Shown one piece after another: positions 9,314 through 59,870 of a stretch of DNA of 64,000 nucleotides. Source of the stretch: Candidatus Dojkabacteria bacterium (GTDB lineage: Bacteria; Patescibacteriota; Dojkabacteria; J137); assembly GCA_025999215.1 (NCBI GenBank), contig AP024679.1, positions 36,007 to 100,006 on the forward strand, written 5' to 3'. The notes under the pieces were generated by a model, which was given only the letters and a program-made list of their open reading frames with translations, did not search any database and was not told the origin of the DNA. A program made the translations under genes and the position numbers. Every line of letters begins with the position of its first letter. The first letter of the stretch is position 1.

Positions 9314-11402
9314 AAATTTTACCGAAAGTTCAAAATCATCTTTTGTTGGTATTTTTTATTTAGTATTTTTTTGGTTAGTTTATTTTAGAAGTATATTCAC
9401 CGAAAAATCTTCTTTTTTTATTTTTTTCGATAATGTTGAACAATTTTATCCATGGTATCAAAAAATTAATTTTGCAATCCAAAATGGTTACATTCCGCTT
9501 TGGGACAACAATGTTCTTGGTGGACATTCCTTTGTAGGAGAATTTCAATCTGGAGCAATGTACTTACCAAATATTTTATTATCATTAATTTTTGGCAATA
9601 GTGATGGTATTTCTCTGATTTATATTGAGCTACTTGTTGCTTTGCATTTTCTATGGATGAGCATGGGAATGTTCTTTTTGTTAAAAAGATATAAGTTTGG
9701 TAATATTGCATCAATAACGGGTTCGATCGTTTTTTCATACTTTGGAACAACCATTGCAAGAGCGCCTGCGCAAACTTCAATATTTTATGGCCTGACTTAC
9801 ATTCCATGGGTATTGCTAACAACGCACTTGTTTTTTGAAAAAAAGTCAAAAAAATATTTAGTTATTACTGGAGTATTACTTGCTAGTCAAATTTATTCGG
9901 GACATATTCAACCTTTTTTTCACGCATCTTTAATGGTAGCTTCCTACTCTTTATATAAATTTATAATCTCTTTAGAATCAAAATTTGATTTTAAAACTAT
10001 ATTAAACAAATTAAAAAACTATACTTTTTCCATGTTGTTAGTGTTTACGACAGCATTGTTTTTAAGTTTTCCACAGCTTTATCTTTCACTTCAATATTTA
10101 AGCAATGCTTACAGGTGGTACGGTCCAGGATCTGTTGGACCAGACGATAAAATACCTTATGGTGTTTTTGGTTATTTATACAATGTTGAACTTGGAGGGA
10201 TTTTTAATTTGATTGATTGGAGAATATTCGTTGATGATGGAAATATTTTATATATCGGAATTGTATTTTTTACATTACTATTATTTGGGATATATTTTAT
10301 ATTTAAAAAAGATTTAGGCAAAAATAAAGAGGTAGATTTTTGGTTTCTCGCATCAATTATAGCTCTTTTAATTTCCCTTGGACATAGAAGTTTTTTAACT
10401 GCTATTATTTACGTGCTTCCATTACTTGATAAGGTTAGGCAAACTGGAAGGTACATAATTATTTTTCATTTTGCCATATCGGTTATAATAGCGTATGCTC
10501 TTTATAATCTTCAATCTAGGTCTTTCAAAATTCAAAATAAATATAAACTTATCTTACTAGCTATTGCGGGGTATATTTTCTTGAACGCTATATTTATGAG
10601 ATTTGTTATTGAAAAAGGGGCAATTTCTAATTTTGAATTATATCAGTGGATTGCTGTATCAATCATAATTTTGGCAATATCAGCAATAGAAAAGTTTAAA
10701 AAATATGCTTTGTTAACAATATTTATTACAGTAACTGCAACCTCACTAATGAGCGAAAGCTTGTTTGTTTATAAAATAAATGCAAGAAGCACATACCCTG
10801 ATGCTTATTTTGCTTCAAATGAGGCCATTGAATTTTTATTATCTCAAACTCAGAAAGAACAATTTAGAATATACAATTATGAAAATGCACTACCTCGCAA
10901 TATTGGTGATGTTTACGATATTCAAACAATTCTAGGGCATGGCGCAACAATGTATAAGCCATATTTTGATTTTTTGATGAGCGATATTAGTTTTGATAGT
11001 GATAAGTTAAATTTGTTAAATGTTAAGTACATTGTTAGTAAAAATGAACTTGATGACGATAGTGTTAAATTAGTTCTTAGAGACAATAAAAAGAATATTT
11101 TTGTCTATGAAAGAAATAATTACTTCCCACGAGTGTTTAGCTTAAATTATTTAGAAAACCAAACAGAAGATGAGATTAGTGAGATAAAGCTTTTGGAATA
11201 TTCAGATCATCATATAAAATATGATATCCAAATGAAAAATCCTGGCCAAGTAATTTTTTCAGAAGTTTATTATCCAGGATGGCATGCGTATGTAAACGGC
11301 AAAAAACAAGAAATACTTCCATTTGAAATATTAAGAAGCCTAAACTTAGAAGAGGGAGATAATCTAGTTGAATTTAGATACCAACCTTTTAAGTTTTTTT
11401 AA
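9258..11402 (+). CDS. YfhO-family-like polytopic membrane protein (GT-C-like glycosyl transferase/flippase used for glycosylating cell-surface polymers)
   Basis: The N-terminal motif FYPWYQKINFAIQNGYIPLWDNNVLGGHSFVGEFQSGAMYLPN resembles the YfhO signature. There are many TM helices and a large C-terminal extracytoplasmic domain. Confidence 0.55.
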   Translation: MIMKSQFMKYTKHLLQTIKNFTESSKSSFVGIFYLVFFWLVYFRSIFTEKSSFFIFFDNVEQFYPWYQKINFAIQNGYIPLWDNNVLGGHSFVGEFQSGAMYLPNILLSLIFGNSDGISLIYIELLVALHFLWMSMGMFFLLKRYKFGNIASITGSIVFSYFGTTIARAPAQTSIFYGLTYIPWVLLTTHLFFEKKSKKYLVITGVLLASQIYSGHIQPFFHASLMVASYSLYKFIISLESKFDFKTILNKLKNYTFSMLLVFTTALFLSFPQLYLSLQYLSNAYRWYGPGSVGPDDKIPYGVFGYLYNVELGGIFNLIDWRIFVDDGNILYIGIVFFTLLLFGIYFIFKKDLGKNKEVDFWFLASIIALLISLGHRSFLTAIIYVLPLLDKVRQTGRYIIIFHFAISVIIAYALYNLQSRSFKIQNKYKLILLAIAGYIFLNAIFMRFVIEKGAISNFELYQWIAVSIIILAISAIEKFKKYALLTIFITVTATSLMSESLFVYKINARSTYPDAYFASNEAIEFLLSQTQKEQFRIYNYENALPRNIGDVYDIQTILGHGATMYKPYFDFLMSDISFDSDKLNLLNVKYIVSKNELDDDSVKLVLRDNKKNIFVYERNNYFPRVFSLNYLENQTEDEISEIKLLEYSDHHIKYDIQMKNPGQVIFSEVYYPGWHAYVNGKKQEILPFEILRSLNLEEGDNLVEFRYQPFKFF

Positions 11403-12299
11403 AATTAATTTCAAAAAATTCTTTCTTTTTCTTTCATAAGCTTCAACAACTCCTTTGTAAATCTTTACTTGCTCATCTTTTTCTCTCACATATTTTTTAA
11501 AATATTTGATATGCTCTTCTCTCTCTTTTACAATTCTTTGTAAATTTTCATTTTGAATAGCTAAATTATGAGCAGCCTTTAAAAATTCAAACATATTATC
11601 AATATAAAGTGCTTGGTGATTTTTAATGATTGTTTTTAAGGAATAATCTACTTTTTCATTTTGCATTTGGGATATGGAATGTTGAGTAATTGCTTGTTTG
11701 TGTTTTCTGTAATAAAAAATTACTTCAGGTTCAAAAACAACTTTTTTATTCATTTCAATTATAGATAGCCAAAAATCATAATCTTCATATCCAAATTTCA
11801 TGGATCTTTTAAAACCACCAACCTTTTCCCAATCAGATTTATAAAACATGGCACATGAAGGTATTAAATTTCTAATTAACATTTCCCCAATGCTAAAAGG
11901 TGGCAACATTCTCTCCCCTTCTAAATCTCCAAAATAAACAGTCTTACCATAGCCAATACCTGCATTTGGAGTGGATATCATTTTATTAACAATTTTTTCT
12001 ATAAAATACTTGGATATTTTATCGTCTGAATCTAAAGTTAAGATTAAATCACCTTCAGAGTTTTTTACACCTGTATTTCGTGCTTCAGGTAAACCTTTAT
12101 TTTTTTTGTGAGTTACAACTTTATATTTTTTTGATAATTTGGATAAGTGTTCGTTTGTGTAAACGTCTGTTGACGCATCATTAACTATTACTATTTCTAT
12201 ATTTTTATATGACTGTTTTTCAACAGAAGCTATTGTTTCATCAATTAAATGCCCGTAGTTATAACAAGGGATAACGACAGAAACTTTTATTTTGCTCAT
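11364..12299 (-). CDS. GT2 glycosyltransferase
   Basis: Carries VSVVIPCYNYGHLIDETIASVEKQSYKNIEIVIVNDASTD and a DSDD motif. Confidence 0.8.
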   Translation of the reverse strand: MSKIKVSVVIPCYNYGHLIDETIASVEKQSYKNIEIVIVNDASTDVYTNEHLSKLSKKYKVVTHKKNKGLPEARNTGVKNSEGDLILTLDSDDKISKYFIEKIVNKMISTPNAGIGYGKTVYFGDLEGERMLPPFSIGEMLIRNLIPSCAMFYKSDWEKVGGFKRSMKFGYEDYDFWLSIIEMNKKVVFEPEVIFYYRKHKQAITQHSISQMQNEKVDYSLKTIIKNHQALYIDNMFEFLKAAHNLAIQNENLQRIVKEREEHIKYFKKYVREKDEQVKIYKGVVEAYERKRKNFLKLILKKLKRLVSKFN

Positions 12300-50920: not shown

Positions 50921-51358
50921 TTACCTATTCGTTTTTAATTCTCCTCTTTCTCTTTTTTCTAGCATTTCTGCTACATAGCCTAAAAGCTCTTGAGGATCGG
51001 TTGTGCTTTTAAGTTTGTAACCATGAGCGCCCAACTCCAAAGCATTTTGTACTGCTATATCACCCCCTATATTGGTTAGCATTATAATCGCCGGATCTCC
51101 ATATCTTTCTTTGTTGTCTAGCAACTCTGTTAAAGTTTCTATTCCATCTTTCTTGGGCATAACAATATCTAGCAATATTAAGTCGTATTTAGTTGCCTCA
51201 GCTTTGGCAAGAGCATCATCACCATCAGAAGCGCCAGAAACTTCGTAATTGTCAACTGTAGATAACAATTCAATGAATGTTGTTCTAGCATCGGGTTCAT
51301 CTTCCACTACCAAAATATTGTAAGTTTTTGGTAAGGTTTCGTTAGTCTGGTGATCCAT
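50921..51358 (-). CDS. stand-alone response-regulator receiver (CheY-like REC domain only)
   Basis: Carries ILVVEDEPDARTTFIELL...YDLILLDIVMPKKDGIETLTEL, a 145-aa length and no output domain. Confidence 0.8.
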   Translation of the reverse strand: MDHQTNETLPKTYNILVVEDEPDARTTFIELLSTVDNYEVSGASDGDDALAKAEATKYDLILLDIVMPKKDGIETLTELLDNKERYGDPAIIMLTNIGGDIAVQNALELGAHGYKLKSTTDPQELLGYVAEMLEKRERGELKTNR

Positions 51359-51505: not shown

Positions 51506-52999
51506 TTGACTGTTCGAACAAGATTAGCACCAAGCCCAACAGGTTCTATGCACATTGGTGGAGTCCGAACTGCGCTATACTGCTATGCACTGGCAAAAAA
51601 GAATGAAGGGCAATATATTTTGAGAATTGAAGATACGGATACAAAAAGGTTCGTTGAGGGTTCAATTGAGGAGATTTTAAAAGTTCATGAAATTTATGGA
51701 ATCAAACCTGATGAGGGTCCAACATACGGCGGCAATTATGGCCCATACATTCAGACACAAAGGAAAGAAATTTATCAAAAGTATGCGCACGAATTAGTCG
51801 AAAAAGGGCATGCGTACTATTGCTTTTTGTTTGGTGACGAACTTGAAAACCTTCAGAATGAATTTCTCAAAAAAGGTACAGGCTTTAGATCTCCGTACAG
51901 GGACATGCCAATTGAGGAAGCTAAGCAAAAAATAGATTCTGGCGAAAAATATGTTATTAGAATGAAAACACCAAATAACGAAAAAATTGAATACACTGAC
52001 GGAGTGCAAGGCAAAGTTGTTTTTGATAGTAACATGGTTTCAGACCAAATTATTCTAAAAAGTAATGGATTGCCCACTTATCACTTAGCTGTTGTGGTCG
52101 ATGATCACTTGATGGAAATTACTCATGTTTTTAGAGGTGTTGAATGGCTTACCAGTACACCCAAGCAAATATTATTGTATAGATTTTTAGGTTGGGAAAT
52201 GCCTCCTTTTTATCATTTATCAACAATTCTTGATCCTGATACTGGCAAAAAATTATCAAAAAGATCAGGCACAGTTTCTGCAATGGAATTTATACGTGAA
52301 GGATACATTCCTGAAGCTGTAAATAATTTTTTGATGCTTTTGGGTTGGTCCCCGCCTATTGAGAGAGCTCACGGCGAAAAAGAACGAGAAATTTTTACCC
52401 TAGATGAATTTATTGAATTGTTCGATCCAAAAGATTTAAACAAAAGTAATCCTGTATTCAATCGTCAAAAACTTCTTTGGTTTAACAAAGAATATATTAA
52501 AAATATGAATACTCTTGATCTAGCAAACAGAGTTGTTGATTGGGTAAAAAACTATTTACCTGATAGAAATCTACTTAGCCACCTTGAAACAGACCCAAAC
52601 CTTGAAGATAAAGTTAAACTCGTCAAAGATCGATGCTATTTAATCAAAGATTTGGTCGAATCAATTAGCTTTTTTTATCACAGGCCTGAAAACATTGTTT
52701 GGGAAATAAAGCAACTTAAAAACGTACCCCGCAATCAAATTCCTCAAATACTAGAAGAATTAAAAAACTTCTTAACCGACTTTTCTGAAAATTCTAGTGA
52801 TTGGTTACACGAAAAATGGGAAAAAGGAATTAGAAATATTGCAGATAAATTTACAATGAAACACGGCGATGCTTTCATGATTTTGAGGTTAAGTGTTACT
52901 GGAAAACCTGTATCTCCTCCACTTTTTGAAGCACTGCAACTTCTTGGAAAACAAGAAATTATTAGTAGAATTGAAAGTGCTTTAAAATCTTTTAAATAG
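51506..52999 (+). CDS. gltX: glutamyl-tRNA synthetase
   Basis: Carries VRTRLAPSPTGSMHIGGVRTALY (HIGH region) and KLSKRSG (KMSKS). The start is inferred as TTG at 51506. Confidence 0.9.
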   Translation: MTVRTRLAPSPTGSMHIGGVRTALYCYALAKKNEGQYILRIEDTDTKRFVEGSIEEILKVHEIYGIKPDEGPTYGGNYGPYIQTQRKEIYQKYAHELVEKGHAYYCFLFGDELENLQNEFLKKGTGFRSPYRDMPIEEAKQKIDSGEKYVIRMKTPNNEKIEYTDGVQGKVVFDSNMVSDQIILKSNGLPTYHLAVVVDDHLMEITHVFRGVEWLTSTPKQILLYRFLGWEMPPFYHLSTILDPDTGKKLSKRSGTVSAMEFIREGYIPEAVNNFLMLLGWSPPIERAHGEKEREIFTLDEFIELFDPKDLNKSNPVFNRQKLLWFNKEYIKNMNTLDLANRVVDWVKNYLPDRNLLSHLETDPNLEDKVKLVKDRCYLIKDLVESISFFYHRPENIVWEIKQLKNVPRNQIPQILEELKNFLTDFSENSSDWLHEKWEKGIRNIADKFTMKHGDAFMILRLSVTGKPVSPPLFEALQLLGKQEIISRIESALKSFK

Positions 53000-55259
53000 C
53001 ATTTTTTTCTTCATTTCTTTTCTTTTTAAGCTTGTTTTCAAATAGTTTACTTATATCTGATTTTTTAATTTCTTTGCGAGGTTGTCCATTATACTTAGGT
53101 AATGACACTGTAAATGTGCTTCCTTTGCCGACTTCACTTTCTACTTTAATTTGACCATTCATATTTTTAATTAAGCTAAAAACAACATAAAGCCCAATAC
53201 CCGTACCACCTGGACGAACAATTTGCCTTTTTCCTATAGTTCCTGAAGAATCAAGATAAGGGTTGATTCTATAAAACTTTTTACCTAAATTTTTAATTTC
53301 ACGCTTTGGTATGCCCTCACCAGTATCAATTGTACCAAATAAAATTTGGTCATCTTTTTGTTTTGCGAAAATAGTAACTACACCTTCCTCTGTGTATTTC
53401 ACAGCGTTACTTACTAAATTATCTAAAATTTGTTGTACACCAGTTTTATCGGCATACGCTTTCAAATTATCACCCACAATTTTTGTTTGCATCTTTAGCC
53501 CTTTCTTTTCTGCTTGAGGTTTATATGCATCCAAAGAATTTTGTACTGCAACCTTAATATCTACTCCCTCAAAAGTCAAATCTAATCTATCATTCTCAAT
53601 TCTTGCAGATGAAAGTATGGTTTCTAAAATTTTTATCTCTCTATTTATGTTGTCTCTTGCAATTTGAATATATTTTTCAACTTTTGAATCTTTTAATCCT
53701 GCCTTATCAGTTAAAACTTTGAGCATAAATAGAGCGTTTCTAGCGGTACCCAGAGGAGTTCTCAGTTCATGCCCCAAAATATCTAGCATATCTCTCTCTT
53801 TTCTAAGTGCTTCAGCAAGGTCTTCATTCTTCCTCTTTAGTTCTGCAGTAGCTTCATCAATTTTCTTTTGGAGAGTTAGGTTAAAGTTTTGGATTTCTTG
53901 GTAATAGTAAGCCCTTGCTACAGAAGCTACAAATATGTCAAAAATATTTTTTAAAAAATCAGTTTCTGAACTACCGAACGGAATGCTTCCGTTTCTGTTT
54001 GAAAATAAGGCAACAAGATTTATTCCTCTAGCCTTACTTTTAAAACTTAAAATTAAACCTGTTTCCTGTTGGAAATTTAGACTAAAATTTCTAATTATTT
54101 CTTCTTGAATATTTTGGTCAACCAAATTGTAAACTATTATTTTATCTTTTTGCTTTAAGTAATTAAGTAATTTAATTACAATTTCGTCCTCAATTTGAGA
54201 AAAAATAATTTTGCCAGAAAAACTTAAATGTATTTTTATAAATTTAGGTTGAAGATTTTTCGAAATAACATTTATCGTTTTTTCGTATATTGTCGAAATA
54301 TTTAATTCATAATTAATTTCCTGAATATAATTACTTATAACAATTTTTGGATCAAAACCTGGATTAATTATGCTTGATGTTACTTTTTGGCTTACAAAAT
54401 TTTTAAAAGAGTCAAAAAATAAGATATACAACACAGCAATAAAAATCCCAAAAATATACGAAGGGAGACTAAATATATCTTTAAATAAAATTATATGAAT
54501 ATATACTAAGAAATAAAAAGAGAAAAATAACAATGATGATATTATTGCAACATAAATTATTCTTCCTAAAATTAGCCGAAAATCAAAAAGCCTATATTTA
54601 AGAACCGCATAGGAAATTGCTAGTATCCAGATTATAGAGGCTACTTGTCCAAACCAATTCAGTGAAAAAATATTTAGGCTAGGCAAAAATAAATTTGTGA
54701 TCATTGCAAGTAATGAACTTATTAACGATCCTCCAAGTATTATTATAATTTGTATTTTTTCTATAAATCTTACTTTGTTTAAAGATTTTAAAAGTAAAAA
54801 ATAACAATATGAAAATACTATTGGGAAATAAGGAAAATAAATAAAAAAATATAACTTACCAAAAACAATCTTTTTTTCACCTTCGACAGGAATTTGAATA
54901 CTATCAATAATGTAATCAGTATTTAAGGTTACAAAAAAAATAAGTGCTACTATAATAAAGAGCAAGTTAACAAAGACATGCCTGCTTAATTTTAGTTTTT
55001 CGTAACAAAATACTAAATACATGAAAGGTGTCATCAAAGCAGAGGCATATAATATTTTACCCCAAAGTTCTGCATTTTTTACTTCTAAGGCTGATCTATA
55101 AAAAATCATTGAAATACACCAAATAAAAATGCTTAGACACAAAAAACTAAATAAAAGATATAATTCATCTTTTTTATACAAACCTCTTATACAAAAAATT
55201 AGAAATAAAAAGAAATTACACAGAGCAATAAGAAGTATTATTGAGTTAATAAAATCCAT
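52992..55259 (-). CDS. sensor histidine kinase with a ~7-TM N-terminal domain
   Basis: Multiple N-terminal TM helices; HisKA LGHELRTPLGTARNAL; HATPase_c G-box GGTGIGLYVVFSLIKNMNGQIKVESEVGKGSTFTVSLP. Confidence 0.8.
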   Translation of the reverse strand: MDFINSIILLIALCNFFLFLIFCIRGLYKKDELYLLFSFLCLSIFIWCISMIFYRSALEVKNAELWGKILYASALMTPFMYLVFCYEKLKLSRHVFVNLLFIIVALIFFVTLNTDYIIDSIQIPVEGEKKIVFGKLYFFIYFPYFPIVFSYCYFLLLKSLNKVRFIEKIQIIIILGGSLISSLLAMITNLFLPSLNIFSLNWFGQVASIIWILAISYAVLKYRLFDFRLILGRIIYVAIISSLLFFSFYFLVYIHIILFKDIFSLPSYIFGIFIAVLYILFFDSFKNFVSQKVTSSIINPGFDPKIVISNYIQEINYELNISTIYEKTINVISKNLQPKFIKIHLSFSGKIIFSQIEDEIVIKLLNYLKQKDKIIVYNLVDQNIQEEIIRNFSLNFQQETGLILSFKSKARGINLVALFSNRNGSIPFGSSETDFLKNIFDIFVASVARAYYYQEIQNFNLTLQKKIDEATAELKRKNEDLAEALRKERDMLDILGHELRTPLGTARNALFMLKVLTDKAGLKDSKVEKYIQIARDNINREIKILETILSSARIENDRLDLTFEGVDIKVAVQNSLDAYKPQAEKKGLKMQTKIVGDNLKAYADKTGVQQILDNLVSNAVKYTEEGVVTIFAKQKDDQILFGTIDTGEGIPKREIKNLGKKFYRINPYLDSSGTIGKRQIVRPGGTGIGLYVVFSLIKNMNGQIKVESEVGKGSTFTVSLPKYNGQPRKEIKKSDISKLFENKLKKKRNEEKNAI

Positions 55260-55297
55260 ATGCTTATTTTAATTATAAATCAATTAACAAAATAAAA

Positions 55298-56953
55298 TTA
55301 TTGCTCAGCATGGCGGCTCTCCTCCTCATAGCTTCCATTTACAGTTACGTAAGGATAACTTAAATTTCCTATCCACTGTAATTGTTCTAAGATTTTAATG
55401 ACTTTTTGAAAAATTTTTACTCTTTCTGGAGTTAAGCCTTCTTTATAACTTGAAAAAAAATACTCGAAAAGTAAATTTACATCTTCATAACATATATTTT
55501 TACGCTCTTCCTTGATAATATAATCATAAATTAATCTTTTCAAAGAATCTTTCGATTTTTTGTTATTATAATCTATTAAATCATTCCTATTGCACAAACC
55601 TAAAATTTCCTTTATTTTATTGATAAACATAGATCTTATATAAACCTCAAACTCACATCCATACATAATACATTCTGAAGTTTTATCAGGTAATGTTGTA
55701 GGGTTCAAACCCAAATCATACTTCTCATCATCAAATGTACTGCGTATAATTGGTGAATTATCTATGCCTGCTAGTGGCTTGATTACAGTTATAATTATTC
55801 CCATTTCTCTTAAAAATTCAATACTTGATGGAGTAACTGCACCTGGTTCGCTATCATCTATAATTATTGCTCCATCCAATGCCATTTGAAATTCCTGTTT
55901 AACACAACTTTTTATCCATTGTTCATCACTAGGATAGTTCCGTTTTAATTCAGCTACTCTTTCCCAATATAGTTTTTCAAAATCAAGGGGTGTAGTTATT
56001 GCTAATACAACTATTTTACTTTTTTTGAAGACATCAAGCCAGTTTTCTGCAACAGTTACTTTTTCCCTGTTTTGCATTTCTGCTGATTTTTCTTTTCTAG
56101 AATCATAAACAATCATATCTTCTGCAAGTATCTCTACTACACTTTTACCAATTCTACCTAATCCTATAACACCTATTTTATTTTTAGGCTTTTGGTTTCC
56201 ATTGACTATAGCATTTAATTCCTGATCTTTTCTTAAACTTTCAACTAACCTCAATATACAGTTAACAGTACCTGCATGTCCTGTTGTAGTTGGGTATTCA
56301 AGCAACTGACCATATTTAAATAAACCTGGAAGCGTTGCACCTAAACCTAAAAATGGTGTAGATGGAAATTTTGATAATAATTTCGTCAACAAAAAAATTC
56401 TTTTATTCCTATCTTTCTTTAAGCGCCAAAGTAACCTAGTTTTAAAAAATAAAGGATCACCTTCTGCAAGTGCCCGAAATAATTTATAAGTACTGACTAA
56501 ATCTACAGGAATCACAATTACTAACATGTTATCCAAACCTTTATAGTACGCAATAGGTATGGGCGGAAGACAAGATAATAATTCCATATAACATTTAACC
56601 TGTGCAGGATCTTCAAAATTAATAACTTCAGCAATTGGAAGAAACATTTTAGCTTCCGCTGAATTGTTTCCCCGAGGCGGCACTAAAAAAATATTTAAAT
56701 TATTAACATCAATACCTTTTTCGTCTAAAAAAGAGTAAGGGTTTTCATAGATTTCAAAGATAAGATTAATACTTTCTTCTGTTCTTTGGAGCTGATCTTC
56801 AGCCAAATTATTTAGTTTTTTTTTAATTTCTTCTAGTTTTTTTAATGCTTTTTGCTTCATTTTATTCAATAATCTTTCAGCCGAAAAAATTTCTTGCTGT
56901 CCACCATTTGTTACTTCAGGTGTAAATGTTTGGTCTTCAACTGTTGGCTCCAT
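55298..56953 (-). CDS. hypothetical 551-aa protein with a central NAD(P)-binding Rossmann motif
   Basis: The KIGVIGLGRIGKSVVEIL GxGxxG motif resembles 2-hydroxyacid/prephenate dehydrogenase-type dinucleotide-binding sites. The flanking regions are unrecognised. Confidence 0.4.
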   Translation of the reverse strand: MEPTVEDQTFTPEVTNGGQQEIFSAERLLNKMKQKALKKLEEIKKKLNNLAEDQLQRTEESINLIFEIYENPYSFLDEKGIDVNNLNIFLVPPRGNNSAEAKMFLPIAEVINFEDPAQVKCYMELLSCLPPIPIAYYKGLDNMLVIVIPVDLVSTYKLFRALAEGDPLFFKTRLLWRLKKDRNKRIFLLTKLLSKFPSTPFLGLGATLPGLFKYGQLLEYPTTTGHAGTVNCILRLVESLRKDQELNAIVNGNQKPKNKIGVIGLGRIGKSVVEILAEDMIVYDSRKEKSAEMQNREKVTVAENWLDVFKKSKIVVLAITTPLDFEKLYWERVAELKRNYPSDEQWIKSCVKQEFQMALDGAIIIDDSEPGAVTPSSIEFLREMGIIITVIKPLAGIDNSPIIRSTFDDEKYDLGLNPTTLPDKTSECIMYGCEFEVYIRSMFINKIKEILGLCNRNDLIDYNNKKSKDSLKRLIYDYIIKEERKNICYEDVNLLFEYFFSSYKEGLTPERVKIFQKVIKILEQLQWIGNLSYPYVTVNGSYEEESRHAEQ

Positions 56954-56957
56954 TTTA

Positions 56958-57752
56958 TTATAATTTAGAAGTTAAAATATACTCTATCACCATAAACCTT
57001 TCATCCTTGTAAAAAGGTATGGTAGAAAACTTAATAGGTACCTTTATACCATGAAAATTAAACTTAACAGTCCTATTGTCATGGTGATTAAAGTCTAAAG
57101 GTTTAGATTTAATTATTTTATTCCAATAATTCCACGCAAATTTTACTTTCTTTATTTTCTCTATTGTATCTAAATATATAGGATCATCCACCATGTAACC
57201 ACACTCAGAATAATACAAATCCAGTAAATGCTTTATAGTCTCTTCATAAGTATTTTTATCAACAAATTTTCCACCCCATTCCGGATCTAGCGCAATATCT
57301 AACAAACTCCGTCCATAAACATTTTCATATTCTTTCTTAGACACGCCTGATAGTTTTATAAACAAATTAGAAGCTTTCCAAACTCTGTACCTATCGTCAA
57401 TCATATACCCAAACACCCACGGCTTATTAAAAAGCTCTCTTACGGATTCAACTGCTTTTGTTACGTCTTCTTCACTTGGTGGATCCATTCGTTTACCATA
57501 TGTGTATTCTCTCTCAAGTAAACTCATCTCTAACACATCTGCTATCGCGTTTAGAGTTTCTTTGTTGGCGTTTGTTACTCCATTTTCTATTCTTGAAATT
57601 GAGCCTGAAGCAGCTCCTATTTCTAACTCCACATCAAACTGTGATAATCCAGCTCTTTTTCTAAAATATCTTAACCTTCTACCTGTTTTCATTGCTTGCA
57701 TTGTTCTTTGATCGGTATAGTCTATTTTAAATTTATTTTGTTGCTTAATCAT
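56958..57752 (-). CDS. XRE-family helix-turn-helix protein with a ~150-aa C-terminal domain of unknown function (paralogue 1)
   Basis: Carries LRYFRKRAGLSQFDVELEIGAASGSISRIENGVTNANKETLNAIADVLEMS (HTH_XRE). Confidence 0.6.
   Translation of the reverse strand: MIKQQNKFKIDYTDQRTMQAMKTGRRLRYFRKRAGLSQFDVELEIGAASGSISRIENGVTNANKETLNAIADVLEMSLLEREYTYGKRMDPPSEEDVTKAVESVRELFNKPWVFGYMIDDRYRVWKASNLFIKLSGVSKKEYENVYGRSLLDIALDPEWGGKFVDKNTYEETIKHLLDLYYSECGYMVDDPIYLDTIEKIKKVKFAWNYWNKIIKSKPLDFNHHDNRTVKFNFHGIKVPIKFSTIPFYKDERFMVIEYILTSKL
57378..57686. repeat. direct repeat copy A (~309 nt, near-identical to 58165..58473)
   Basis: The encoded residues 23-125 and 37-139 of the two XRE paralogues are essentially identical. 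The plus-strand antisense ORFs 57458..57664 and 58245..58451 translate almost identically (differing only near one end). The period is 787 bp. Confidence 0.8.
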
Positions 57753-58581
57753 GTTTACGAATTAAGTATTCCACTAAATTAAACCTTTCGTCAAGATGTA
57801 ACGGTACTATAGAAAAATACACTGGATAACTAAACAAACCCGTATTAAACGTAACTTTTCTTCTTTTAACATCTTGAAGCTTCAATGGTCTCGATGATTT
57901 TACCCGTGGCCATAGCTCTTTAACTTGATCATTTGTATCTAAAAAGTAAATAGTTTTACTAACCACATCATCATCTACCATAAATCCACACTTTGTATAA
58001 AAAGACTCTAACAAATCTTTTAGAATATTAAAATAACTATTTCTTTTGAGAAATTTTTTTCCAAGATTATCATCCAATACAATCTCAATTAGCGATCTAC
58101 CCTTGTTTTTATCTACTTCATCTTGATTTAGTCTTAAAAATCTCCTCATCGCATTTGATATTTCCCAAACTCTATACCTATCATCCAATAAATACCCAAA
58201 CACCCATGGCTTATTAAAAAGCTCTCTTACGGATTCAACTGCTTTTGTTACGTCTTCTTCACTTGGTGGATCCATTCGTTTACCATATGTGTATTCTCTC
58301 TCAAGTAAACTCATCTCTAACACATCCGCTATCGCGTTTAATGTTTCTTTATTGGCATTTGTTACTCCGTTTTCTATTCTTGAAATTGATCCTGACGCTG
58401 CTCCTATCTCTAATTCAACTTCAAACTGAGAGAGATTGGCTCTTTTCCTGAAGTATCTTAGTCGTCTTCCAGTGATGAAGGCATCCCCCAGCATACTTGT
58501 AGTGCTGTGTTTTTTTTTGGCTGTAAATGATGCCTGTAGTTTCATTGCGGTGATTTTACAACAAGTACAAGTTGATGTCAA
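57745..58581 (-). CDS. XRE-family helix-turn-helix protein (paralogue 2; the true start is probably the internal Met at about 58494)
   Basis: Same HTH as paralogue 1. The C-terminal domain is homologous but diverged. Confidence 0.6.
   Translation of the reverse strand: MTSTCTCCKITAMKLQASFTAKKKHSTTSMLGDAFITGRRLRYFRKRANLSQFEVELEIGAASGSISRIENGVTNANKETLNAIADVLEMSLLEREYTYGKRMDPPSEEDVTKAVESVRELFNKPWVFGYLLDDRYRVWEISNAMRRFLRLNQDEVDKNKGRSLIEIVLDDNLGKKFLKRNSYFNILKDLLESFYTKCGFMVDDDVVSKTIYFLDTNDQVKELWPRVKSSRPLKLQDVKRRKVTFNTGLFSYPVYFSIVPLHLDERFNLVEYLIRKHD
58165..58473. repeat. direct repeat copy B
   Basis: See copy A. Confidence 0.8.
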
Positions 58582-58661
58582 TTGAATTTGACGAATTTGA
58601 AAAATACTTGAAAATTTTTATGGTTGTGGTATACTGAACAAGATTAATTTAAATTTAGATT

Positions 58662-58928
58662 ATGGCAAACACGAAATCCGCAAAAAAAGCTATCAGATCT
58701 CAAGAAAGAAAAAGGCAATACAATCTAAAAAGACTTACAGAATTCAGGCTTGCAAGAAAGCAAGTTAAAAAGGCTGTGGAAAGTGGGAATGCAGAAGAAG
58801 CAAAGAAACTTCTTTCATTTGCTTACAAAAAGATCGATAAAGCTGCAAAATCTGGACCAATTAGCAAAAATGCAGCTAGCAGGTACAAATCTAAGCTTGC
58901 AAAACTTGTTGAATCAATAACCAAATAA
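58662..58928 (+). CDS. rpsT: 30S ribosomal protein S20
   Basis: Carries MANTKSAKKAIRSQERKRQYNLKR...; 88 aa, basic. Confidence 0.9.
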   Translation: MANTKSAKKAIRSQERKRQYNLKRLTEFRLARKQVKKAVESGNAEEAKKLLSFAYKKIDKAAKSGPISKNAASRYKSKLAKLVESITK

Positions 58929-58981: not shown

Positions 58982-59515
58982 ATGAAATGGAGTTTTTTGA
59001 ATATTTTAAATGACGCACTGTTACCTGCTTCGTTAATGATAGTCTCAAAGTTTATTGGAGTTTTTGTAGTTGTGCTTTTATTTAACCTTGATTGGAGTTT
59101 GGAGGAATATTCAAACCAAATATTTGCATTCGGTACAACAAAAAGTGTAGATGACGCTATTATTATCACTAGCTATTCAGATTTGTTTATGTATTTAGTC
59201 ATGGTTTTGTTTTTGAGCTTTTCTATAATTAGAGCAGTTTTTTTTCATTCAACTCACATTAATCCAGAAATTTTTTACAAACTTACTCTCAATAATCTTT
59301 CGGACTTGGTTAAGAATTCTTTTGTTATCTATAAATCTGCAACTATTTGGCTAATTTTTACAATTTTTGCAAACTTAGTTATTCTTGCAAATTCAGTCCT
59401 TGGCAAAAGTTTTGCGTGGATTGGATTACTTACCGCTTCAATTACAATTAGCCTTGCGGTAATTTTAGCTAGCGATGTTTCTAGGGAAATTAAATCTCAG
59501 AAAAACATTAAATAA
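58982..59515 (+). CDS. small integral membrane protein (about 4 TM)
   Basis: Hydrophobic segments LLPASLMIVSKFIGVFVVVLLF, LFMYLVMVLFLSFSII, IWLIFTIFANLVILA and IGLLTASITISLAVILA. Confidence 0.4.
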   Translation: MKWSFLNILNDALLPASLMIVSKFIGVFVVVLLFNLDWSLEEYSNQIFAFGTTKSVDDAIIITSYSDLFMYLVMVLFLSFSIIRAVFFHSTHINPEIFYKLTLNNLSDLVKNSFVIYKSATIWLIFTIFANLVILANSVLGKSFAWIGLLTASITISLAVILASDVSREIKSQKNIK

Positions 59516-59627
59516 TTTTATTTTTTTCTAGATTTAAGAATTGCCACCCCTAACATTAATTAAGTTTCTCGAGAGAAATTATTAAACAGCTGTTGAAAAA
59601 ATTTTTATAATGTCCTAGTCTGTAAGT

Positions 59628-59870
59628 ATGGAATATCCAAATTACATTTCAAGGTTGTTTTGGGAATACGATATATCTCTTTTAAATCACAAGTTACATA
59701 AAAATTTAATTATCGAGAGAGTATTGGAAAAAGGAAATTTTGACGCTATCTCATGGCTATTTAAAAATTATTCTTTTTCTGATATTTGTGAATCATTGTC
59801 GTCTCCAAACATTTCATCACCTACACGCTTTTTATGGCAAAATTATTTTGCTAAAATCACTCAAGCTTAA
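59628..59870 (+). CDS. small protein (80 aa), putative partner/antitoxin-like component of the downstream nucleotidyltransferase
   Basis: Its stop lies 9 nt upstream of the start of the NTase gene, a gene pair on one strand. No HTH was recognised with certainty. Confidence 0.3.
   Translation: MEYPNYISRLFWEYDISLLNHKLHKNLIIERVLEKGNFDAISWLFKNYSFSDICESLSSPNISSPTRFLWQNYFAKITQA

Follow-up and report, generated by a model that had tools for sequence, protein, structure and literature searches.

How can two adjacent genes encode regulators that are almost identical in one half and so different in the other? The question is raised by a tandem gene pair in a 64,000-nucleotide (nt) stretch of the 862-kb contig AP024679.1 (hereafter, the window), which comes from the metagenome-assembled Candidatus Dojkabacteria genome KatS3mg085, where the pair is annotated as _101 and _102. 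We refer to the two window paralogues as A (the downstream one, 56958–57752, 264 amino acids (aa)) and B (the upstream one, 57745–58545, 266 aa from the ATG at 58545), to related loci as L001 to L011 and to individual proteins by P numbers. In the list of open reading frames (ORFs), both genes lie on the minus strand and run in the same direction; each encodes an XRE-type helix-turn-helix (HTH), a linker and a PAS-like C-terminal domain (C-domain), of the “A type” and the “B type”, respectively. The whole-length protein identity is 60%. The HTH-coding segments (57498–57683, residues 24–85 of A; 58285–58470, residues 26–87 of B) share the identical recognition helix SGSISRIENG, and over residues 24–125 of A only 4 of 102 positions differ from B (G35N, D41E, M117L, and I118L). 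The sensor domains (56973–57419, residues 112–260 of A, with a helical insert placed after two strands and before three more; 57760–58206, residues 114–262 of B) are 32–38% identical beyond that segment, so that, as an earlier note on this sequence had observed, they are homologous but differ at most positions. The explanation that we favor, and consider probable as a whole, is that A and B are a translationally coupled pair of MmyB-like regulators with old and distinct sensors, whose 5′ half has been overwritten by gene conversion.

The likeness of the 5′ halves takes the form of a minus-strand direct repeat with a period of exactly 787 base pairs (bp), one copy lying in A (57366–57665) and the other in B (58153–58452); no third copy was found within the window. 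The earlier note had described about 309 nt of near-identical repeat and a segment that was essentially identical in both protein and nucleotide sequence. The tandem pair, the period, and the protein identity stand, but the repeat is a graded one of 300 nt with 89% identity (34 mismatches). Identity is 96.5% over 57405–57602 and ~76% over 57603–57665, and it falls to ~47% in the 30 nt of 57678–57707, upstream of the repeat, in the part encoding HTH helices 1–2, where third codon positions are near saturation. The core of the youngest tract (57405–57553 in A and 58192–58340 in B, minus strand) covers 149 nt with 2 mismatches and includes an exact run of 119 nt (57421–57539 = 58208–58326). Residues 67–116, from HTH helices 4–5 through the linker and N-cap helix to strand 1, are encoded by this core.

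Only two further full-length close relatives were found among 5.8 billion proteins, P0002 (L001) and P0004 (L002). Both are single genes at the same site as the window pair, divergent from rpsT, the gene for ribosomal protein S20 that serves as the synteny anchor (58662–58928 on the plus strand of the window, divergent from B), and in both loci a seven-transmembrane (7TM) histidine kinase gene follows the regulator after one or two genes. A scan of GTDB representative genomes returned one locus, L003 (Saccharibacteria), matching the HTH only. Judging by the flanking orthologues, the three genomes are about equally distant (58–78% aa identity). In the C-domain, A is closest to the L001 protein (61–65% aa identity, nonsynonymous divergence (dN) 0.27) and B to the L002 protein (41–45%, dN 0.51), compared with a dN of 0.75 between A and B. 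The four-point sums of dN (0.77 vs 1.33 and 1.43) strongly favor the grouping ((A,L001),(B,L002)). Neighbor-joining trees with 200 bootstraps, built separately for the two halves as the earlier note had proposed, gave the discordance that gene conversion leaves, with the tract grouping by genome and its flanks by orthology: the HTH tree joined A with B (bootstrap 96–100), and the C-domain tree joined A with L001 (100) and B with L002 (98–100). The discordant trees and the divergence together indicate that the sensor halves are old and distinct and that the 5′ half was homogenized within this genome. Hence, this comparison of sequences supports a history of ancient sensor types combined with recent segmental gene conversion.

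How the two sensor types came to lie side by side is a separate matter. A history that differs in the origin of the pair only would start from a single ancestral gene, one sensor type being gained later from a relative, by transfer or allelic recombination, at a site beside the resident copy, and conversion following. The two closest genomes do carry one copy each, of differing types, and the order of types varies among the arrays of bacteria of the candidate phyla radiation (CPR; X–Y in L004, Y–X–X in L009), as such a gain would allow. However, the C-domain identity between A and L001 falls within the range of the flanking orthologues and so gives no sign of recent transfer, the G+C content of the two genes (32–34%) is close to that of the window (30%), and tandem pairs are common across the family. 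We therefore regard a later gain as unlikely, though worth keeping in mind. The N-terminal tails proved too short and too diverged to read a repeat-mediated deletion of a tandem in L001.

A far less probable account is that the assembly produced the pair, by collapse or expansion of a repeat or by a chimera of strains, and that only one gene is real. The source is metagenome-assembled, each of the proteins comes from a single contig, and an exact repeat of 119 nt is hard for short-read assemblers. Yet, away from the core, most positions differ between the copies, and the junction between the end of B and the start of A is unique: the two genes meet in frame in an 8-nt overlap, ATGATTAA (57745–57752, minus strand), which places the B stop within the A start, and there is no second copy of the promoter. 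Moreover, the same overlapping tandem layout is present in independent assemblies from other CPR lineages. The overlap itself implies that translation of B and A is coupled.

That there was no conversion, the 5′ likeness resulting from purifying selection or from an embedded RNA or DNA element, is hard to credit once synonymous sites are considered. Over the whole HTH, the two proteins are 96% identical, with a proportion of differing synonymous sites (pS) of 0.58, and each is 79–89% identical to the orthologues; in the first 27 HTH codons, 15 third positions differ between A and B. Purifying selection explains this part and suffices for the protein identity of HTH helices 1–2, since the identity to the orthologues is similar. 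It does not explain the linker (A residues 80–109, 30 codons), which is the least conserved part among the orthologues (62–67% nt and 53–75% aa identity) yet is 100% identical in nucleotides between A and B, with a synonymous difference of zero. In the rest of the C-domain, aa identity is 32%, third-position identity is 38%, and pS is saturated at 0.69, so that a tract with a synonymous divergence (dS) of 0 lies bounded between saturated flanks. When all mismatches were permuted, a run of 119 nt was reached in 0 of 200,000 permutations; when third-position mismatches only were permuted, a clean stretch of 39 codons was reached in 4 of 200,000 (p about 2e-5). As for an embedded element, the tract is not conserved at the nucleotide level in L001 and L002, and an RNA element is rejected because an Rfam scan of 56.0–59.2 kb gave no match. 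A very recent tandem duplication, after which the C-domains diverged at an accelerated rate under positive selection, corresponds to the second reading of the earlier note. It fits the tandem arrangement, the repeat period of 787 bp, and the identity of the 5′ core but has next to no chance of being right, because synonymous sites are saturated in the C-domain and none differ in the core, and because the C-domains group with L001 and L002 and not with each other.

Gene conversion restricted to the 5′ half, the other reading of that note, is thus the one that stands. From the synonymous sites, conversion is required from the recognition helix through strand 1 of the C-domain, the youngest tract being at residues 67–116 and an apparently older or leakier conversion zone reaching back from there to the recognition helix. 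The linker that A and B share is nearer to the A-type orthologue (75% vs 56%), and the HTH that they share is nearer to the B-type orthologue (88–89% vs 79–80%), which would faintly hint at conversion events in both directions.

The window is not alone in this respect. Two-gene arrays were found in L004 (Candidatus Doudnabacteria), L006, and L007/L008, a three-gene array in L005, and in L009 a pair with another gene close by; the L004 pair has the same type of overlap as the window (ATGAnTAA), and ATGA overlaps occur in L005 and L007. In trees of 19 family sequences, the HTH grouped paralogues by genome (bootstrap 99 for L004, 96 for the window, 91 for L009, and 69 for L007), whereas the C-domain grouped types across genomes, with (L004_1, L011, L009_2, L009_3) at 100 and (L004_2, L009_1) at 96. 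The discordant arrays lie at L004:5244–6741, L009:7001–8497 and 10716–11459, and L007:1162–2660. In L004, the HTH shows 90–97% nt and 70–90% third-position identity, compared with 20–40% third-position identity in the rest of the alignment; the signal in L009 is weaker. As the same discordance is present in at least two other genomes, concerted evolution of the HTH half is recurrent and extends beyond the window. Among bacterial paralogues, tufA/tufB and the rRNA operons are examples of concerted evolution. The window pair resembles these cases in that identity within the genome exceeds that between genomes, homogenization of synonymous sites is bounded, and tract and flanks give discordant trees. 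It differs from them in that the tract keeps to a single functional half of a regulator with two domains and that this restriction recurs in several genomes of the family.

The nature of the sensor half bears on what this mosaic could mean. In A and B, the Pfam and NCBIfam models recognized the HTH only (HTH_3 at E 3.9e-8 for A and 5e-8 for B, with HTH_31 above its gathering score), and PF17765 (MLTR_LBD), the ligand-binding domain of the MmyB-like type, had no match in either protein at E ≤ 1. A profile of four C-domains was then searched against 1.84 billion representative proteins and retrieved 169 clusters, almost all of ~250 aa and with the domain likewise placed. The profile matched P0111, which bears PF17765, at E 2e-11, and 9 of the 129 members of the family matched PF17765 themselves (best E 8.3e-8). 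In the PDB, a sequence search with the four-sequence profile gave spurious matches only; the profile of the 129-sequence family matched 3pxp_A at E 1.9e-5 over profile positions 34–202. An AlphaFold2 model of A built from the 129-sequence alignment (pLDDT 94.4, pTM 0.89) places a linker and an N-cap helix (residues 94–108) between an HTH of five helices and a PAS-like domain.

The structure 3pxp is that of MltR (Caur_2278), the structural representative of the MmyB-like family, which joins an Xre-type DNA-binding domain to a PAS-related domain and was found with bound myristate (Xu et al. 2012, PMC3406030). A and B share with it the N-terminal Xre-type HTH, recognized by Pfam and modeled with five helices, the short linker, and the PAS-related ligand-binding domain with extra helices; the five-stranded antiparallel sheet, the flanking helices, and the similarity to solved PAS structures place the domain in the PAS superfamily. 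Homology to the MmyB-like family is reached through profiles and intermediates, and a direct PF17765 match is lacking. Hence, the C-domain, which the earlier note had left unassigned while taking it for a probable sensor, is indeed of a sensor type and can now be assigned to the MmyB-like type of PAS-like ligand-binding domains, in whose pocket a small molecule, for example a fatty-acid-like one, may control DNA binding. On the basis of fold and profile-level homology, with no direct Pfam match, we place A and B among the MmyB-like regulators, in a divergent branch from CPR bacteria. Besides the missing PF17765 match, they differ from MltR in having only 11% identity to 3pxp, in forming a translationally coupled tandem pair linked to a 7TM histidine kinase, and in their host, a CPR bacterium outside the phyla of the 2012 description (actinobacteria, proteobacteria, firmicutes, and chloroflexi; PMC3406030). 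In the literature that was searched, no paper was found to link MmyB to Patescibacteria.

Other XRE regulators resemble the pair in the HTH. An identity as XRE-class type II antitoxins (HipB, MqsA, or HigA) was rejected: the NCBIfam scores were 13–27 bits against cut-offs of 62–79, a PAS-like domain of 150 aa is present, and no toxin gene is adjacent. For the RNPP/Rgg/PlcR/ComR, SinR, and HipB/MqsA proteins, whose C-termini are tetratricopeptide repeats or short oligomerization helices, matches of the window proteins are limited to the HTH. Closer in size and HTH are the XRE-GAF regulators of CPR bacteria (P0005 and P0180–P0199; ~250–265 aa, HTH 41–57% identical), but their C-terminal sensor is a GAF domain (PF13185 or PF01590) and not a PAS-like domain of the MLTR type. 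To judge from equal lengths of their longest contigs, some of these apparently share a contig in pairs (P0184/P0186, P0183/P0190, P0191/P0195, and P0189/P0199), and the habit of pairing regulators may extend past PAS-type sensors to the XRE-GAF proteins.

Upstream of B, a promoter-like site on the minus strand (TTGACA-17-TAAAAT, 58553–58581) matches at 11 of 12 positions, is the top sigma-70-like match in 6.2 kb, and is kept in L001 and L002. The earlier note had read B from a TTG at 58581; we rejected this start, as the TTG belongs to the −35 hexamer of the site. B most likely starts at the ATG at 58545, because this ATG aligns with the L001 start and yields the 266-aa product of the public annotation (KatS3mg085_102). 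The A of this ATG sits only 8 nt past the end of the −10 hexamer, and therefore the mRNA from the B promoter is probably leaderless or nearly so. The arrangement of −35 hexamer and start is the same in L001 and L002. For P0004, which is called at 251 aa, an in-frame upstream ATG lines up with the window and L001 starts, and its start (L002:9953–10000) is probably 16 codons further upstream, giving ~267 aa.

Directly downstream of the pair, as the earlier note had stated and the ORFs and Pfam bear out, lie the genes for a 551-aa protein with a Rossmann NAD(P)-binding segment (55298–56953, minus strand) and a 755-aa 7TM-receptor histidine kinase (52992–55259, minus strand; HisKA_7TM, HisKA, and HATPase_c). 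Only 4 nt separate the A stop from the start of the 551-aa gene, which probably belongs to the operon of A; the kinase gene begins 38 nt beyond the 551-aa gene, and no terminator-like site was found on the minus strand between these genes. From the short gaps and the lack of a separating terminator-like site, we predict a four-gene operon of B, A, the Rossmann protein, and, as the last gene, the kinase. It would probably be transcribed from the one strong, near-leaderless promoter, under the control of A and B themselves.

Candidate operators for such autoregulation were sought as palindromes, a search limited by the numerous chance palindromes that AT-rich DNA yields. The best placed is GTCAA-N6-TTGAC (58577–58592), a putative operator that overlaps the −35 hexamer, has a single exact match in the window, and is found at the orthologous position in L001. 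Another palindrome, CAACttGTACttGTTG, lies within the promoter spacer and occurs in the window only, not in the relatives. Elsewhere in the family, the 14-bp palindrome TGTATTGCAATACA is perfect at three positions in L011 (4494–4507, 6894–6907, and 12502–12515), and degenerate variants of it (TGTRTTRCAAYRCA) occur in L004 (5173–5186) and L009 (4412–4425, 4712–4725, and 10578–10591). Palindromes of this type are often present in several copies per locus and, in L004 and L011, are found immediately 5′ of the regulator genes; TGTATTGCAATACA is likely the operator of the L011, L004, and L009 relatives.

Taken as a mechanism, the favored explanation would run as follows. A and B would be co-transcribed, translationally coupled one-component regulators, in each of which a linker joins an Xre-type HTH to a PAS-like domain; the stop/start overlaps in the window, L004, L005, and L007 fit a co-production in fixed proportion. 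Their sensor types are old, each having a single-copy orthologue at the S20-flanked site of a different Dojkabacteria genome, and gene conversion has overwritten the 5′ half between the copies, the latest event leaving the near-identical tract of ~150 nt. In MltR, the dimer interface combines HTH helices 4 and 5 and the linker with the sheet and the helix that opens the ligand-binding domain (PMC3406030), and of these the youngest tract in the window covers the counterparts in helices 4–5, the linker, and the N-cap helix. It would end where divergence bars recombination or where homogenization of the sensors is selected against. With an identical recognition helix and a tract covering the dimer elements, a shared operator and A:B pairing are to be expected: both proteins would bind the same operator and probably pair with each other, and one promoter would integrate two small-molecule signals through differing PAS pockets. 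For MltR, ligand-stabilized dimers on a palindromic site have been proposed (PMC3406030), and by analogy we infer shared operator specificity, possibly heterodimers, and distinct ligands.

Several points weigh against this explanation or parts of it. MltR was monomeric in solution (PMC3406030). The candidate operator GTCAA-N6-TTGAC is common to the window and L001 but absent from L002, which makes it a weak candidate, and a search of the window for palindromes of the TGTATTGCAATACA family found none. The exact repeat of 119 nt is read from the assembled contig. As close relatives are confined to three Dojkabacteria genomes, an ancient tandem with reciprocal loss is inseparable from later acquisition of one type. 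Finally, the analysis shows the gene anatomy, the fold, the remote homology, the mosaic phylogeny, and the conversion tract; heterodimerization, ligand binding and control, the shared operator, and autoregulation are predictions.

The surroundings of the regulators add a further element. At every family locus with enough context, a histidine kinase is encoded within a few kb, with a HisKA_7TM match in the window, L002, L004, L010, and L011 and without one in L006 and L009; for L001, where the kinase is truncated, the alignment with the window kinase spans 539 residues. The window kinase is orthologous to that of L004; the two align in full at 31% identity (E 2e-109). The genes between regulator and kinase vary among the loci: a GNAT protein (Acetyltransf_5) in L001, a protein resembling pyruvoyl-dependent histidine decarboxylase in L002 and L011, and unknown proteins elsewhere. 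In the window, this place is taken by the 551-aa orphan, whose Pfam score is marginal (2-Hacid_dh_C, 25.9 bits vs a cut-off of 25.1); a search of the 5.8 billion proteins found only the protein itself, and no homologue was found among the cargo genes of the related loci. For the MmyB-like family, adjacency to genes for short-chain or medium-chain dehydrogenases/reductases (SDR/MDR) or for antibiotics has been reported, and the NAD(P)-type Rossmann protein beside A and B echoes the former; the window differs from that family in that the target genes are co-directional within an operon and not divergent. Regulator(s), variable cargo, and a mostly 7TM kinase thus recur as a cassette in the window (52992–58545), L001, L002, L004, L010, and L011 and also in L006 and L009.

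A broader and more speculative proposal, which we hold to be a shade less likely even than the later gain considered above, is that CPR MmyB-like paralogues act as heterodimers or as competitors for one operator, with the DNA-binding and dimerization half actively held identical through recurrent conversion restricted to it and a few ancient sensor types combined anew from genome to genome, and that together with a swappable small-molecule enzyme (pyruvoyl decarboxylase, GNAT acyltransferase, or orphan Rossmann protein) and the 7TM kinase they form a portable metabolite-signaling cassette. If true, the cassette would be a module for signal synthesis and sensing in bacteria otherwise thought to be minimally regulated. 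The protein family and gene conversion are both already known, and the pair is an informative case, not a new principle. It is a clean and quantifiable case of gene conversion that halts at a domain boundary and recurs in several CPR genomes, and the assignment gives a fold and a family to ~170 protein clusters so far labeled only as XRE HTH, extending a family earlier known mainly from actinomycetes and proteobacteria to the CPR bacteria, of which very few regulators are characterized. The regulatory logic that it suggests is that of two sensors on one operator, sharing a transcript with a variable enzyme and the 7TM kinase.

Two features of the flanking regions remain to be mentioned. A 351-aa methyltransferase-like gene (NpmA and Methyltransf_4 hits), missing from the window (59515–59628), sits between a 178-aa gene and a DUF6922 gene in L001 (951–2006) and L002 (7927–8982). 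Finally, a stand-alone response-regulator receiver is encoded near the kinase in both the window and L002; that of the window (50921–51358, minus strand, 145 aa, without an output domain) lies two genes past the kinase and is a possible partner of it.

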